Origin: Terriglobia bacterium | Lineage (GTDB): Bacteria; Acidobacteriota; Terriglobia; 20CM-2-55-15 | Assembly (NCBI GenBank): GCA_965218585.1 | Contig: CBDCLE010000010.1 | Location: 32,001 to 96,000, forward strand | Direction: 5' to 3' | DNA length: 64,000 nucleotides | Part shown: in pieces, positions 13,807 through 62,352 of the stretch | How positions within the stretch are numbered: position 1 is the first letter of the stretch | Layout: each line of letters begins with the position of its first letter | Notes under the pieces: model-generated | What the model saw: only the letters and a program-made list of their open reading frames with translations | Database searches by the model: none | Told to the model about the DNA's origin: nothing | Position numbers and translations under genes: made by a program

Positions 13807-13954
13807 GATGTTAAGTAATGAGAGCGCATCTCATCGCGGCTCGGTTCAACCAGCTGAGTGCACTCGAACAGGAAAGGGTGAGTACTATTCTAATGCAAAC
13901 TGAGCAGGGACAGAGAAACTTCGGGAAGGTCTGCCTCGATCTGACAGCTGACGA

Positions 13955-13993
13955 CTCGGCTCCGCCTCGTTGTCCATCCGCACCGGGAGACCG
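13955..13993 (+). repeat. Partial copy of the dispersed structured element
   Basis: 13955-13984 is identical over 30 nt to 18944-18973. Confidence 0.8.
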
Positions 13994-14031
13994 GGGTGGC
14001 GAAACGTCAACTGACTTGCTTGTCGACCAAA

Positions 14032-16903: not shown

Positions 16904-18832
16904 GTGCCCGATCAGAGTCCGGAGCATAAACCCTACATCTCCGCTTCAACTTCACTTCCCGAAATCACGATAAAGTCGCTCTTCCTCGGCATCATCCTTG
17001 CGATCGTCCTGGGTGCGGCCAATGCTTACCTTGGACTCTTTGCAGGCCTCACCGTCTCGGCATCGATCCCTGCTGCCGTCATTTCGATGGCTCTTCTACG
17101 GTCTTTCAAGAACTCGAACATTCTTGAGAACAACATTGTTCAAACTGCGGCCTCCGCAGGAGAAAGTGTGTCGGCAGGGGTTATTTTCACGATTCCGGCT
17201 CTGGTTATTCTTGGCACATGGACCGAGTTCAACTACTGGGAGACAACCATGATCGCGGGCTTTGGAGGGTTTCTGGGCGTCCTGTTCACCATTCCTCTCC
17301 GCCGCGCACTGATCATTGAAACCCCGCTGCGCTTTCCCGAAGGCGTTGCGACTGCGGAGGTTCTGAAAGTCGGTGAAGGTGGCGGCACGGGCGTTCGCAA
17401 CATCGCAGCCGCAGGAGCCATCGGAGCCATCTTCAAACTGGGTGAAACCGGCTTCCGCTTGTGGGGCGGTGTCATTGAACAGGCGACCTACGCCGGCGGT
17501 ACGATCCTTTATATTGGAAGCAACCTTTCCCCGGCCCTTATCGGTGTCGGCTACATCGTGGGCCTGAACATTGCCGCTCTCGTGTTTATCGGGGGCGCAC
17601 TCAATTGGTTCGTTGCTATTCCGATACTTGCCCTCGTGAACGGGATCGCTCCGGATGAATCCGCCGTCAGCGCGGCCGGTGTCCTCTGGTCCACCCAAAC
17701 GCGCTATCTCGGCGTGGGTGCCATGGTGGTGGGTGGTCTATGGGCCCTGGTAAAACTGCGGACCAGTTTGATTCAGGGAATCCGGTCCGGAGCTGCGGCT
17801 TACCGGAAGACGCGCGATGGCGGGATGGCGGCAACTGGTCGCACGGAGAGGGACATGCCCATGCAGTGGATTGGTATCGCCATAGCCCTATCGGTGATCC
17901 CTCTCTATTTCATCTTCAATCACATCACAGGAGAACCAGCGATCTCAGCTGCAATGGCGGTCATCATGCTCGTCGCGGGGTTCCTGTTTTCAGCGGTGGC
18001 GGCCTACATGGGTGGACTCGTCGGCTCGTCGAACAATCCGATTTCCGGTGTCACCATCGCCACGATTCTCAGTTCAGCGCTGCTACTGTTGGTGTTCCTG
18101 GGTGGAGACAGCCCTATTGGCCCAGCATCTGCGATCCTGATCGGTTCCGTGGTATGTTGCGCCGCGGCAATGGCCGGCGACAACATGCAGGACCTCAAGG
18201 CCGGATACCTGGTAGGAGCCACTCCCTACAAACAACAGATTGTTCAAGGAGTGGGCGTTATTTCAGCGGCAGTCGTCATCGCGCCGACGTTGACGCTCCT
18301 ACTGGAGGCTTACGGAATCGGCATCCCGACCGAGGCTCATCCCGAGCCTCTGGCGGCGCCCCAGGCCACTCTGATGGCTTCAGTGGCTCAGGGTGTATTT
18401 CGGGGAGGATTGCCAGTCGGCATCGTCGCCATCGGAATGGTGATTGCCGTCGCCGTTATCGCACTGGACCTTTACCTGGAGCGGAAACAAGCAAACTTCA
18501 GAACACCTGTGCTTGCTCTTGCCGTAGGCATCTATCTTCCCCTGGAACTTTCGGTGCCTATTGTTATCGGGGGATTGATTGCCCATCGTGCCGGACGCAT
18601 AAGAACTGGCACCGAAGATCGGGGCGTTCTGTTTGCAGCAGGTCTGATCACAGGGGAAGCCCTGATCGGGATCGCGATGGCGATACCGATCGTCATCTAC
18701 GGCCGTGCAGACATCCTGGCCTTCTGGGGAGTTTATGATGGGAATATTCCCGGGGTCGTCCTGCTTGCCCTCGTCGCTTTCCTTCTCTATCGCGCGGGTG
18801 TCTGGTCGGAATCGTCTGGGGAAAATTCGTAA
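16904..18832 (+). CDS. OPT family oligopeptide transporter
   Basis: SASIPAAVIS, ENNIVQT, FPEGVATAEVL, SSNNPISG and MQDLKAG; many TM segments. Confidence 0.95.
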   Translation: MPDQSPEHKPYISASTSLPEITIKSLFLGIILAIVLGAANAYLGLFAGLTVSASIPAAVISMALLRSFKNSNILENNIVQTAASAGESVSAGVIFTIPALVILGTWTEFNYWETTMIAGFGGFLGVLFTIPLRRALIIETPLRFPEGVATAEVLKVGEGGGTGVRNIAAAGAIGAIFKLGETGFRLWGGVIEQATYAGGTILYIGSNLSPALIGVGYIVGLNIAALVFIGGALNWFVAIPILALVNGIAPDESAVSAAGVLWSTQTRYLGVGAMVVGGLWALVKLRTSLIQGIRSGAAAYRKTRDGGMAATGRTERDMPMQWIGIAIALSVIPLYFIFNHITGEPAISAAMAVIMLVAGFLFSAVAAYMGGLVGSSNNPISGVTIATILSSALLLLVFLGGDSPIGPASAILIGSVVCCAAAMAGDNMQDLKAGYLVGATPYKQQIVQGVGVISAAVVIAPTLTLLLEAYGIGIPTEAHPEPLAAPQATLMASVAQGVFRGGLPVGIVAIGMVIAVAVIALDLYLERKQANFRTPVLALAVGIYLPLELSVPIVIGGLIAHRAGRIRTGTEDRGVLFAAGLITGEALIGIAMAIPIVIYGRADILAFWGVYDGNIPGVVLLALVAFLLYRAGVWSESSGENS

Positions 18833-18916
18833 CAGGCCAACTTTAGTCTTCAGCTGATTCCCAGACCCGACGATAGTCTTATTCGACTGAGTTGAGATCG
18901 AGCGATCATCGTGCTC

Positions 18917-19116
18917 GATTTGATCGTTTTCCGGCACCCACGCCTCGGCTCCGCCTCGTTGTCCATCCGCACCAGAGACCGATGCGGATCCTTCAGGACC
19001 TGCTTCAACGAACCGATATGCTGAAGGGCTTGCAATCAGGATGATTGCGAGCGTCGCCCTGCTTTCACATTAAAGACTCGGCCAGGATGGCCGTAAGAAC
19101 GACCGAGCGAAATCTT
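18917..19116 (+). repeat. Dispersed structured element, full copy 1 (two CAGGATG-capped hairpins)
   Basis: Collinear with 53158-53393 and shows compensatory stem changes; strand not established. Confidence 0.75.
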
Positions 19117-19136
19117 AGGTCGCGAACTACGGCTTC

Positions 19137-19967
19137 TTACCTCAGAACCTGTTCCAGCGAAGTCGACGCGTCGGTCTTTTCGTCGCGGTACTTGACGATT
19201 ACAGGCGCATAGACCGAGACACCGTTCTGGGCAGCAAAGTCACCCCTGGCAGGCCGCGTGCCCGGAACAAGAACGGCACCTGCCGGGATGGTCAGCGGAG
19301 TGTCGCCCGTGCGTTGGTAGATGGTCTCCCGGACGGTGTCGTATACGCGGACGCCGCCGGTCAGCAGAACTCCCGGCGCGAGCACAGCCCGTTCACCGAC
19401 GATGACGCCTTCATACACACCGCAGTTTCCTCCCACGAACGCATCATCTTCTACGATGACTGGAAGCGCCCCCGGGGGTTCTAAGACGCCGCCAATCTGC
19501 GCGGCAGCGGAGAGGTGGACCCTTTTACCTACCTGAGCGCATGAACCGACCAACGCGTGGGAGTCCACCATGGAGCCGTCATCGACCCAGGCGCCGATAT
19601 TGATGAACATCGGCGGCATACAGATCACGTTCTTCCCGATGTAAGCGCCATCACGAATGCTGGACCCACCGGGAACGACCCGGGGATCGGAATCGGTCCT
19701 ATGCCGAAGCGGCAACGTGTCCTTGTCCAGGAATCGAAATTCTTCAGATAAATCTCTTTCGGCGTTCGTCCCTACTCGAAAGGCCAGCAGAATACCCCGC
19801 TTCACCCAAGCATTGGTCCGCCATACGCCATCAACCTTCTCTGCGGCGCGGTAATGTCCCTGATTGAGTCCGTCCCGAAATTCGGCTACGACACCCAGCC
19901 CTTCTGCCCGGGCCTTCTCAGCCGGCATTGCTATCAGTCGATCTATGTCGTTCTGTATATCAGCCAT
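19137..19967 (-). CDS. dapD: Tetrahydrodipicolinate N-succinyltransferase
   Basis: WVKRGILL, VGSCAQVG and IGGVLEP hexapeptide region; in dap operon. Confidence 0.93.
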   Translation of the reverse strand: MADIQNDIDRLIAMPAEKARAEGLGVVAEFRDGLNQGHYRAAEKVDGVWRTNAWVKRGILLAFRVGTNAERDLSEEFRFLDKDTLPLRHRTDSDPRVVPGGSSIRDGAYIGKNVICMPPMFINIGAWVDDGSMVDSHALVGSCAQVGKRVHLSAAAQIGGVLEPPGALPVIVEDDAFVGGNCGVYEGVIVGERAVLAPGVLLTGGVRVYDTVRETIYQRTGDTPLTIPAGAVLVPGTRPARGDFAAQNGVSVYAPVIVKYRDEKTDASTSLEQVLR

Positions 19968-52479: not shown

Positions 52480-53152
52480 TCGCTCTAGAACGACGCCGTT
52501 TGTCACAGTGGCTCTCATTGTCGTCAATTCACTCATCTTCCTCTACGAACTCTCTCTCGGATCGGATCTCGAGGCCTTTTTCTTCAGCTATGGTGTTGTT
52601 CCAAATAATGTATTCCAATGGCCCGCCTCAGGGCAATCTTTTGCGTCAATCACCGTTCCCTATTTGACGTCCATGTTCCTGCACGGTGGTTGGTTCCATC
52701 TGATCGGTAACATGTGGTACCTGTGGATCTTCGGGGACAACGTCGAAGATCGGTTGGGACACGGCCGGTTTCTCCTCTTCTATTTACTGGCCGGACTCGG
52801 TGCCGGCTTCATCCACACCGGTGTCAACTACTACGTCGAAATTCCCAGTGTAGGCGCGAGCGGAGCTATCGCCGGTGTCCTGGGAGCCTACCTTCTGCTG
52901 TATCCCTTTGCGCGTGTCCTGACCCTCATCCCGATATTCTTCTTCTGGCAAGTCATCGAGATTCCGGCTCTTATTGTCCTCGGCCTCTGGTTCGTCATGC
53001 AATTTCTCTCGGGCACGAGTTCCCTGGCCGTTGCCGACGCCTCGTCCGGCGGCGTGGCCTGGTGGGCCCATATTGGCGGATTCCTCGTTGGCATGGTCCT
53101 GCTCGCCGTATTCCGCCGGCCGAAGCGGGGCCCAACGTTACTTAAGGCTTAG
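52457..53152 (+). CDS. Rhomboid intramembrane serine protease
   Basis: HGGWFHLIGNM, GASG and AHIGGF. Confidence 0.93.
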   Translation: MIPFRDNIRSRTTPFVTVALIVVNSLIFLYELSLGSDLEAFFFSYGVVPNNVFQWPASGQSFASITVPYLTSMFLHGGWFHLIGNMWYLWIFGDNVEDRLGHGRFLLFYLLAGLGAGFIHTGVNYYVEIPSVGASGAIAGVLGAYLLLYPFARVLTLIPIFFFWQVIEIPALIVLGLWFVMQFLSGTSSLAVADASSGGVAWWAHIGGFLVGMVLLAVFRRPKRGPTLLKA

Positions 53153-53157
53153 ACGGG

Positions 53158-53393
53158 GATTTGGTCGATCGGGTACCAACGGGGAGGGTGGGACGGTTCC
53201 AGACTTGGCATGTGATGCGTCAGAAGCAGCCCTGAACCGCCTCGTTGTCCCCCCGCACGGGCGACCCGTGCGGGGCCTTCTGCAATGCCCGCCACGTTCC
53301 ACTGTGTCCCCAGAAAGGGCTTGCGATCAGGATGATCGCGAGCTCGCCGGTCGTTCGGACAGGATGTCCGATTGAACGACCGAGCGCAATCTT
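53158..53393 (+). repeat. Dispersed structured element, full copy 2
   Basis: Collinear with 18917-19116 and shows covarying stems; strand not established. Confidence 0.75.
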
Positions 53394-53433
53394 CGTTGGC
53401 GGTTAAGCCGCTATCAGAAGTTGGAGAAGACCT

Positions 53434-62281: not shown

Positions 62282-62352
<71 letters not shown>

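Follow-up and report, generated by a model that had tools for sequence, protein, structure and literature searches.

A probable IS630/Tc1-mariner-type miniature transposable element of Terriglobia whose double-hairpin core outlasts its ends

One review (PMC3184786) describes ERIC (also IRU), a repeat of ~127 bp from Enterobacteriaceae, as a MITE (miniature inverted-repeat transposable element) with TA at both termini; according to the same text, such repeats are co-transcribed at the 3′ ends of genes and affect mRNA stability, and ERIC is reported to be co-transcribed and to change mRNA decay depending on its orientation. Table 1 of that review lists the Correia elements (CREE/NEMIS) of Neisseria and RUP of Streptococcus pneumoniae as MITEs. 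Members of the IS630 family of insertion sequences (ISs), such as IS630 of Shigella and ISY100, use TA as a target, with CTAG preferred, and their ends adjoin the duplicated TA; PMC2170065 presents TA duplication as general for the family, and a title cited in its reference list states that IS630 transposes to TA within CTAG. Another kind of repeated hairpin is found in the RNAs CsrB, RsmY, and RsmZ, in which GGA motifs are placed in the loops. Correia elements and RUP have been linked to TA targets and IS630-type enzymes, and they affect neighboring transcripts. Here, we consider a stretch of 64,000 nucleotides (nt) of DNA from a Terriglobia bacterium (assembly GCA_965218585.1, contig CBDCLE010000010.1, positions 32,001–96,000), called the window below, in which a dispersed element is present in two copies, Copy A and Copy B. 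The original prediction described an unannotated multi-copy element of 200–240 nt at 18917–19116 and 53158–53393, either a small RNA (sRNA) or protein sponge or a single-stranded mobile element. The analysis presented here indicates that the window copies are probably old, end-decayed forms of a ~276-bp MITE of the IS630/Tc1-mariner type, in which the core hairpins were retained and may be constrained in the 3′ untranslated regions (UTRs) of adjacent genes. The element is thus probably the interior of a decayed MITE and not a stand-alone sRNA gene.

The similarity to the described systems is partial in each case. Like ERIC, the element is a small non-coding repeat located at gene 3′ ends, with a conserved imperfect hairpin fold and conservation across species; unlike ERIC, with which it has no sequence likeness, it is ~276 bp long, contains four internal hairpins and two near-invariant CAGGATG loops, and is restricted to one genus of Terriglobia, and its presence in transcripts is a prediction. 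With Correia elements and RUP, it has in common inverted-repeat ends, TA duplication, and tens to hundreds of copies. In those elements, however, it is mostly the terminal repeats themselves that make up the hairpin, whereas in the present family the ends decay and what stays conserved is a distinct module of the interior. The TA target, the preference for CTAG, and ends adjoining the duplicated TA are shared with the IS630 family, whose relatives in sister genomes are CTAG-bounded and 1.10–1.16 kb long, but the MITE has no transposase gene, and its ends match those of the recovered ISs only over approximately the first 10 nt. The GGA motifs in hairpin loops resemble CsrB, RsmY, and RsmZ, and the loop motif is that of the CsrB repeat. 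Unlike these RNAs, the element has two sites per copy only, no Rfam match, and no promoter or terminator found, and it is dispersed as transposon copies that at co-directional sites are mostly antisense to the adjacent gene.

The genome containing the window (G000; 4.55 Mb in 26 contigs, 95.5% complete, with the window at C10:32001–96000) was compared with those of four sister species of the same genus (G001–G004). BLAST against the whole G000 assembly revealed further family copies by the dozen. A family profile of 167 model positions, obtained with nhmmer iterated until convergence, gave 68 matches in G000 at a cut-off of E ≤ 1e-3, corresponding to 62 loci once overlapping and opposite-strand matches were merged; 19 of the matches are full-length and most others retain just the 3′ part. 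Copies are present in all four other species of the genus. A covariance model (R1) was built on the best-kept module of the element, 79 nt comprising hairpins H3 and H4 and the tail described below. It matches at 58 places in G000, 52 in G001, 43 in G002, 46 in G004, and at least 134 in G003, while one or two matches occur in each of four genomes from two other genera of the taxonomic family and none across 130 genomes that represent 12 further families of the class. In the stray outgroup copies, fold and tail are preserved although the stem sequences differ, and the H3 loop reads CACGATG. A scan of public genomes with an 18-nt tail motif, not used further, returned at least 14 stretches, several of them from unrelated phyla. 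With Rfam 15 at the gathering score, the only match in the entire window was a tRNA at 62282–62352, the element being unmatched, and at E ≤ 10 no match was found within 18700–19300. The expectation that the element is multi-copy and unannotated was therefore borne out by the 62 loci and the missing Rfam family, and the search of the genome and its relatives with a covariance model, which had been suggested, yielded the matches just given. No account of the family was found in literature on Acidobacteria MITEs, CsrA/MITE hairpins, or IS630-type CTAG MITEs, a survey that did not cover the sequences of the MITE census PMC11602168, which are held in its supplementary files. In BLAST against 40 relatives, only a 5′ part was in common with one other genus outside the genus of the window. 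This concerns G022 (L014, G022:C70:191038–194086, and other contigs), where 21 BLAST matches are limited to the 5′ arm and the first part of the core (query 6–54). Some of these matches are spaced at 280–284 nt; Tandem Repeats Finder reported no array at that locus, and the G022 repeats may be a different family having the 5′ module in common.

The core of the element is built in a fixed order, namely a 5′ segment (CGCCTCGGCT.CGCCTCGTTG), hairpin H1, a variable hairpin H2, H3 with the loop CAGGATG, a two-storey H4 with an identical loop, and a near-invariant tail, GAGCGAAATCTT. Among the G000 copies, similarity breaks off sharply behind the tail, whereas upstream of the core it is lost little by little. 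For the analysis of covariation, 64 copies from five species were aligned out of 87 full or near-full copies (20 from G000 and 67 from the sister species); the 23 copies omitted before counting (L146, L150, and 21 loci of relatives) were picked by eye as longer and insertion-bearing. In a structure of 32 pairs, standard pairing is found in 96.7% of cells versus 87.4% after shuffling. Double-sided changes occur in 20 of the 32 pairs, the number of double-change cells is 160 compared with a shuffle mean of 39, and none of 500 shuffles equaled any of the observed covariation measures. Since the copies are related, the shuffle count overstates the significance. The constraint on the fold is nevertheless clear because sliding the partner columns by 1–3 positions reduces pairing to 30–43%, and because many pair types are represented, as in one H4 pair that is GC in 34 copies and AU in 28. 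The H4 loop is CAGGATG in 60/64 copies and the H3 loop in 37/64; H3 loops reading CACGATG (7/64) and CATGATG (2/64) contain no GGA, and flipped CATCCTG loops also occur. The compensatory nature of the stem changes, which had been noticed from two copies, is therefore confirmed in the family, and the loops described as invariant are nearly so. Insertions were also observed in the hairpins. One variant (G000 C5:32494–32682; L058, L060, and L066 in G001) has an additional small hairpin (…CCACGCG…CGCGA…GGTC…) in place of the H4 loop, so that insertions are evidently tolerated at, or attracted to, the H4 tip. In five G000 copies (C21:9925–10011, C17:98317–98403, C10:17690–17781, C10:4892–4988, and C5:149854–149960), the same insert of 85–110 nt, running from ...GCCGTGGGGGGACCGGACCGG to GGGCCCGACGCTAATGAC..., is located inside H3; several of these loci match the family on both strands and are therefore long palindromic mosaics.

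The mobile nature of the element became visible in the sister species. From G003 and G001, 38 copies were taken together with their flanks and 22 of them were aligned. Similarity continues well beyond the core on either side, and the aligned copies span CTAG-TGTCCTGAGTYAGAAGTTCG to CGAACTTCTGACTCAGGACAC-TAG, so that the alignment reads C-TA-GTGTCCTGAGTYAGAAGTTCG ... core ... CGAACTTCTGACTCAGGACAC-TA-G. The element of the sister species thus has 22-nt terminal inverted repeats beginning with GTG and is flanked by TA, usually within CTAG. When 73 full cores of the four sister species were scanned for the end-repeat motifs, with at most 6 mismatches of 23 allowed, 25 carried the 5′ repeat, 21 the 3′ repeat, and 11 both, and TA was retained outside 17/25 of the 5′ and 12/21 of the 3′ repeats; a control with shuffled arms gave 0/1560 matches. 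The median length of the end-bearing copies is 276 bp, which is longer than the 200–240 nt of the original prediction. The IS630-family transposase domain PF13358 has no match in G000 and 35, 59, 3, and 18 matches in G001, G002, G003, and G004, respectively, and the IS630-family ISs delimited in the sister genomes (1104–1159 bp, bounded by CTAG) have ends that begin with GTGG or GTGT like those of the MITE. Terminal inverted repeats, TA/CTAG flanks, and the presence of IS630-family ISs with similar ends together make the element a probable IS630-type MITE. Terminal inverted repeats and target-site duplications had been named in advance, there along with a missing transcript, as the mark of a plain MITE, and intact relatives have both such repeats and duplicated TA. 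As for the alternative offered at the time, a single-stranded mobile element, the DNA is mobile, but its 22-nt inverted repeats with TA form the cut-and-paste pattern of IS630/Tc1 and not a single-stranded one.

Comparison of orthologous sites, proposed along with the original prediction, supports insertion at both places in the window. At the place of Copy A, 4/4 sister species have no insertion; the flanking genes are adjacent in them, with spacers of 33, 47, and 66 nt and one 5-nt overlap of flank matches, versus 342 nt in G000. For Copy B, both informative species lack the insertion, with spacers of 104 nt (G001) and 123 nt (G003), versus ~330 nt in G000, one side being rearranged in G002 and G004. 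Both window copies are therefore insertions of roughly 220–300 nt, and comparison of the spacers suggests that, most simply, they arose in the lineage of the window's species. Many sites occupied in relatives are empty in G000. Spacers have diverged too far between species for an exact reconstruction of empty sites and duplications.

The fate of the element after insertion was followed at shared sites. Flank searches placed six G000 copies at the same sites as copies of sister species, and 11 orthologous groups were found among the relatives. In global alignments of 12 orthologous pairs, for which the chance level is ~0.58, the mean identity is 0.68 in the 5′ arm, 0.64 in the 3′ arm, 0.69 and 0.74 in the outer, mostly coding flanks, 0.77 in the 5′ half of the core, and 0.89 in the 79-nt H3–H4–tail module. 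The module is thus better kept in orthologues than the arms of the element or the adjoining, mostly coding, DNA, and because its two hairpins are conserved better than adjacent genes, the host seems to use them. Together with the covariation, the module identity upholds the proposed selection on fold. Four species have one site in common at which the module is near-identical and the spacer beyond it unalignable; the H4 outer stem of the G000 copy is altered there by compensating changes and its loop is flipped.

The gene context of the element was analyzed in 140 copies (62 from G000 and 78 from relatives). Sixty of them lie between convergent and 15 between divergent genes, and four are in an undetermined setting. 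Between co-directional genes, the strand with the GGA loops, which is the strand considered in the original prediction, is antisense in 45 copies and sense in 16 (binomial p 2.6e-4; 36:15, p 0.0046, with orthologous duplicates removed). Due to this bias, the strand most often continuous with the mRNA of a gene is the reverse complement, on which the loops read CAUCCUG and not GGA. The 3′ end of the core points at a stop codon, typically 12–110 nt away, and many copies abut the stop exactly, at core distances of 26–30 nt on the 3′ side or 69–74 nt on the 5′ side. These distances equal the arm lengths, as would be expected if the element had inserted into a CTAG that includes a TAG stop; the frequent location of the element at a CTAG containing a TAG stop places it at gene 3′ ends. 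It is proposed that an IS630-family transposase moves the MITE in trans and that, after insertion, the hairpins would become constrained through read-through from the adjoining gene. In the 3′ UTR, they would act as protein-bound stem-loops setting or protecting the 3′ end of the transcript, as has been reported for ERIC and Correia elements. By analogy with these repeats, stem-loops recognized by a protein in 3′ UTRs would be the most likely role of the module.

Several observations weigh against the reading of the window copies as decayed MITEs with constrained 3′-UTR hairpins. None of the 19 full cores of G000 carries either end repeat within 6 mismatches, and the inverted repeats and duplications of the window copies themselves are unrecognizable; their MITE nature follows from homology to intact relatives and from the size of the insertions. 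The absence of end repeats in G000 copies is read as decay, and in the profile of the full-length element, column identity is 0.3–0.6 in the end repeats versus 0.8–1.0 in the core. The same core is flanked by at least three different end pairs. No exact parent was recovered either, as in 10 loci none of the IS ends matched the MITE repeat within 5 mismatches and agreement covers only approximately the first 10 nt. The gene calls behind the context analysis are crude, being based on open reading frame (ORF) length and a codon score trained on long ORFs. Scans of the consensus showed neither a sigma-70 promoter nor an intrinsic terminator pattern common to the copies; two terminator-like sites are peculiar to Copy A, and a reverse-strand hairpin followed by CCCTTTT was rejected as an intrinsic terminator since the T run is missing from the sister-species consensus. 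Among 15 public sequencing runs, no RNA run containing this DNA was listed. Moreover, the clues to the functional strand disagree. Orientation points to the reverse complement, and hairpin integrity in G000 is 0.92 where that strand is sense versus 0.83–0.89 elsewhere, in small numbers. Wobbles in H3 point to the GGA strand, with 43 G:T versus 6 A:C mismatches, an excess that derives mostly from two inherited variants, whereas in H1 the ratio is opposite (9 versus 15). Finally, gene conversion among 50–130 copies could mimic purifying selection.

The last point leads to an explanation without any host function, according to which the core is uniform because of gene conversion, or through descent from master copies whose interior mattered to the element alone. 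The identity of the H3–H4–tail module in non-orthologous pairs, 0.83, is only slightly lower than in orthologues, conversion could start from the extended identical stretches of the tail and H4, and loops flipped end for end represent DNA-level rearrangement at the stems; mosaic copies and the three end types are signs of recombination between copies. On the other hand, three orthologues at one site, each from a different species, share the paired variant GATC/GATC in the H4 outer stem, which is absent from most paralogues, and such site-specific paired variants argue against simple homogenization by gene conversion. The arms of the same copies decay and the core does not, and G000, which has no transposase, retains its 58 covariance-model matches. 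In other genera, single stray copies have the same fold built from different stem sequences, which also speaks against conversion, as it cannot act on a lone copy. Taking both sides together, we regard the absence of host function as unlikely.

The second explanation assumes that the GGA strand is transcribed and that each copy binds a CsrA dimer, so that the family titrates CsrA or puts flanking genes under CsrA control. A hairpin loop reading CAGGA[U/C/A]G is the CsrA/RsmA site repeated in CsrB, and each copy offers two GGA loops ~45 nt apart in stable hairpins, the one in H4 being the most constant. The presence of csrA, which was to be checked, was established: G000 has two CsrA genes, one of them at the end of a row formed by a flagellin-like gene, fliW, and csrA (L001 1405–3147), the other a second gene with a CsrA domain. 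Judged from gene order, this row is the layout expected for a predicted FliW-partnered CsrA control of flagellin. The motif CAAGGATG is present in the leaders of 2/4 flagellin-type genes, in one of them in the loop of a small hairpin, which makes GGA hairpins plausible predicted CsrA sites in this organism; in these leaders (G000 C4:30226–30378 and C2:378159–378311), CAAGGATG is located upstream of a GGAGGA ribosome-binding site. The H3 wobbles favor the GGA strand, as does the RNAalifold energy (−40.8 versus −35.7 for the other strand). Against this stand the inherited origin of most of the G:T excess, the prevalence of antisense orientation of the GGA strand at co-directional sites, and the highest hairpin integrity, although in small numbers, where the other strand is sense. 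Loops of H3 lacking GGA or flipped to CATCCTG, the CACGATG loop of the outgroup copies, the missing shared promoter or terminator pattern, and the lack of a match to the CsrB or Rsm families of Rfam likewise do not agree with CsrA titration, and we consider a CsrA decoy or sponge improbable.

A role in single-stranded DNA, with hairpins folding in DNA at replication or handled by a Y1 enzyme of the REP/RAYT or IS200/IS605 type, is very improbable: although in G000 the GGA strand is on the C-rich strand at 44/62 loci (p 0.0013), including 25/36 convergent or divergent sites at which gene direction is uninformative (54.7% of G000 genes are co-oriented with the G-rich strand), two Y1_Tnp genes exist (C10:115768–116097 and C3:160482–160829), and covarying stems with fixed loops resemble DNA hairpins recognized by proteins, the best-assembled relative, G003, shows no such bias (34/77 loci with skew sampled every 114 kb, 9/23 with local skew) and the link to strand composition is therefore not general, neither Y1_Tnp gene adjoins a family copy, and intact copies have the inverted repeats and TA duplications that single-strand transposons lack. 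As candidates for the identity of the element, REP/REPIN with RAYT was ruled out given that no copy lies beside the Y1_Tnp genes and the element has 167–276 nt with inverted-repeat ends, and an IS200/IS605-derived element was ruled out given the inverted repeats and TA flanks of intact copies. Two further small repeats were seen near family copies in G000. A REP-like palindrome, GTGCGCTCATAGAGCGCAC, followed by CTACAGG, is located directly upstream of three short, 3′-only copies (C9:110300–110330, C9:114402–114430, and C16:20855–20885). A short repeat, TTGCTCACTGTCCCCGAATT, recurs beside copies at C16:20990–21015, C5:149680–149708, C5:150010–150040, and C26:112690–112740, at one of these sites as an inverted pair, and has the appearance of a terminus belonging to another small mobile element.

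The copies in the window itself, all on the forward strand, agree with the anatomy of the family, and every one of the ordered modules previously reported as common to the two stretches is present in its place. Copy A, as a whole decayed MITE remnant, extends over 18874..19136 with approximate ends; the profile of full-length relatives matches 18911–19136 at positions 44–262 of 272. It occupies nearly the whole 304-nt spacer of a convergent gene pair, in which the OPT transporter gene on the plus strand has its stop at 18832 and the DapD-like gene on the minus strand has its stop at 19137. Its conserved core (167 positions, 176 nt here) is 18941..19116 (nhmmer model 1–167, 131.9 bits). The GATTTGRTCG previously taken as the first module is present but belongs to the less-conserved 5′ arm, the family-wide core beginning only at 18941. 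H1, ATCCGCA...TGCGGAT, at 18965..18989, is recognized by sequence and fold, with 6/10 pairs covarying family-wide (helix 1). H2, CCTTCAG...CTGAAGG with a variable interior, is predicted by folding at 18990..19027, in a region poorly conserved in the family. H3 with the loop CAGGATG follows at 19028..19052; 7/10 of its pairs covary (helix 2), and both the fold and the covariance model cover it. The inner stem of H4, CGGCC/GGCCG with the loop AGGAT, is at 19079..19093 (fold; covariance model, 50.3 bits). Its outer stem is interrupted by an insertion at 19059–19078, typical of a subfamily in which the insertion takes the place of the 5′ strand of that stem, and the outer pairs are non-standard in the covariance model alignment. 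The tail, GAACGACCGAGCGAAATCTT, at 19097..19116, consists of near-invariant columns and forms the sharp 3′ edge of the core: family similarity in G000 ends exactly at 19116, and metagenome contigs have loose ends here. As RNA, Copy A folds weakly better than shuffled sequences (z −1.3 forward, −2.1 reverse).

Copy B, likewise a whole decayed MITE remnant, was delimited at 53151..53433 from the sequence, ORFs, and orthologous spacers. It also lies between convergent genes, as had been stated for both copies, namely a rhomboid gene (+, stop 53150–53152) and a permease gene (−, stop 53434), and its first bases are the TA in the CTAG to which the rhomboid gene's TAG stop belongs. The core, covering model positions 11–167, is 53237..53393 (nhmmer 129 bits; fold z −4.16), and as RNA it folds clearly better than shuffled sequences, with z −4.2 for the forward and −3.2 for the reverse strand. 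The double hairpin H3–H4 with the tail, the best-conserved module, is located at 53316..53393 and matches the covariance model R1 with 94.2 bits (E 5.9e-24), every pair being standard. Behind the tail of Copy B, the 40 nt up to the permease stop (53394–53433) contain TCAGAAGTT, which resembles the 5′-type end repeat but is not oriented as a 3′ end should be, and may be the remnant of a second, inverted insertion. The partial copy reported near 13955 was recovered as a fragment at 13952..13998, consisting of the 5′ end of the core and half of H1 (alignment; nhmmer model 1–47, E 8.6e-6).

As regards the meaning of these results, the transposon part is ordinary, adding one more bacterial MITE family, in poorly studied uncultured soil Terriglobia. 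For annotation, it is relevant that the family breaks assemblies, as seen in four metagenome DNA runs whose contigs break at family copies, and that those who read raw sequence can mistake it for an sRNA gene. Less ordinary is the constraint on the 79-nt double hairpin at sites that are orthologous between species. In a further-reaching and rather unlikely version, the double hairpin would be a domesticated protein-binding RNA module, spread by the transposon to the 3′ ends of ~40 to >130 genes per genome and bound by CsrA, through the CAGGAUG loops, or by another protein reading the loop and tail; it would then constitute a genus-wide post-transcriptional regulon or sponge that outlives the loss of the transposase. 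The better preservation of the module, its near-invariant loops and tail, and the non-random orientation of the copies relative to the gene whose stop codon they adjoin jointly suggest that the host makes use of what the transposon carries. If this is true, then a mobile element would have been spreading a ready-made structural signal in RNA (or DNA) to many genes.

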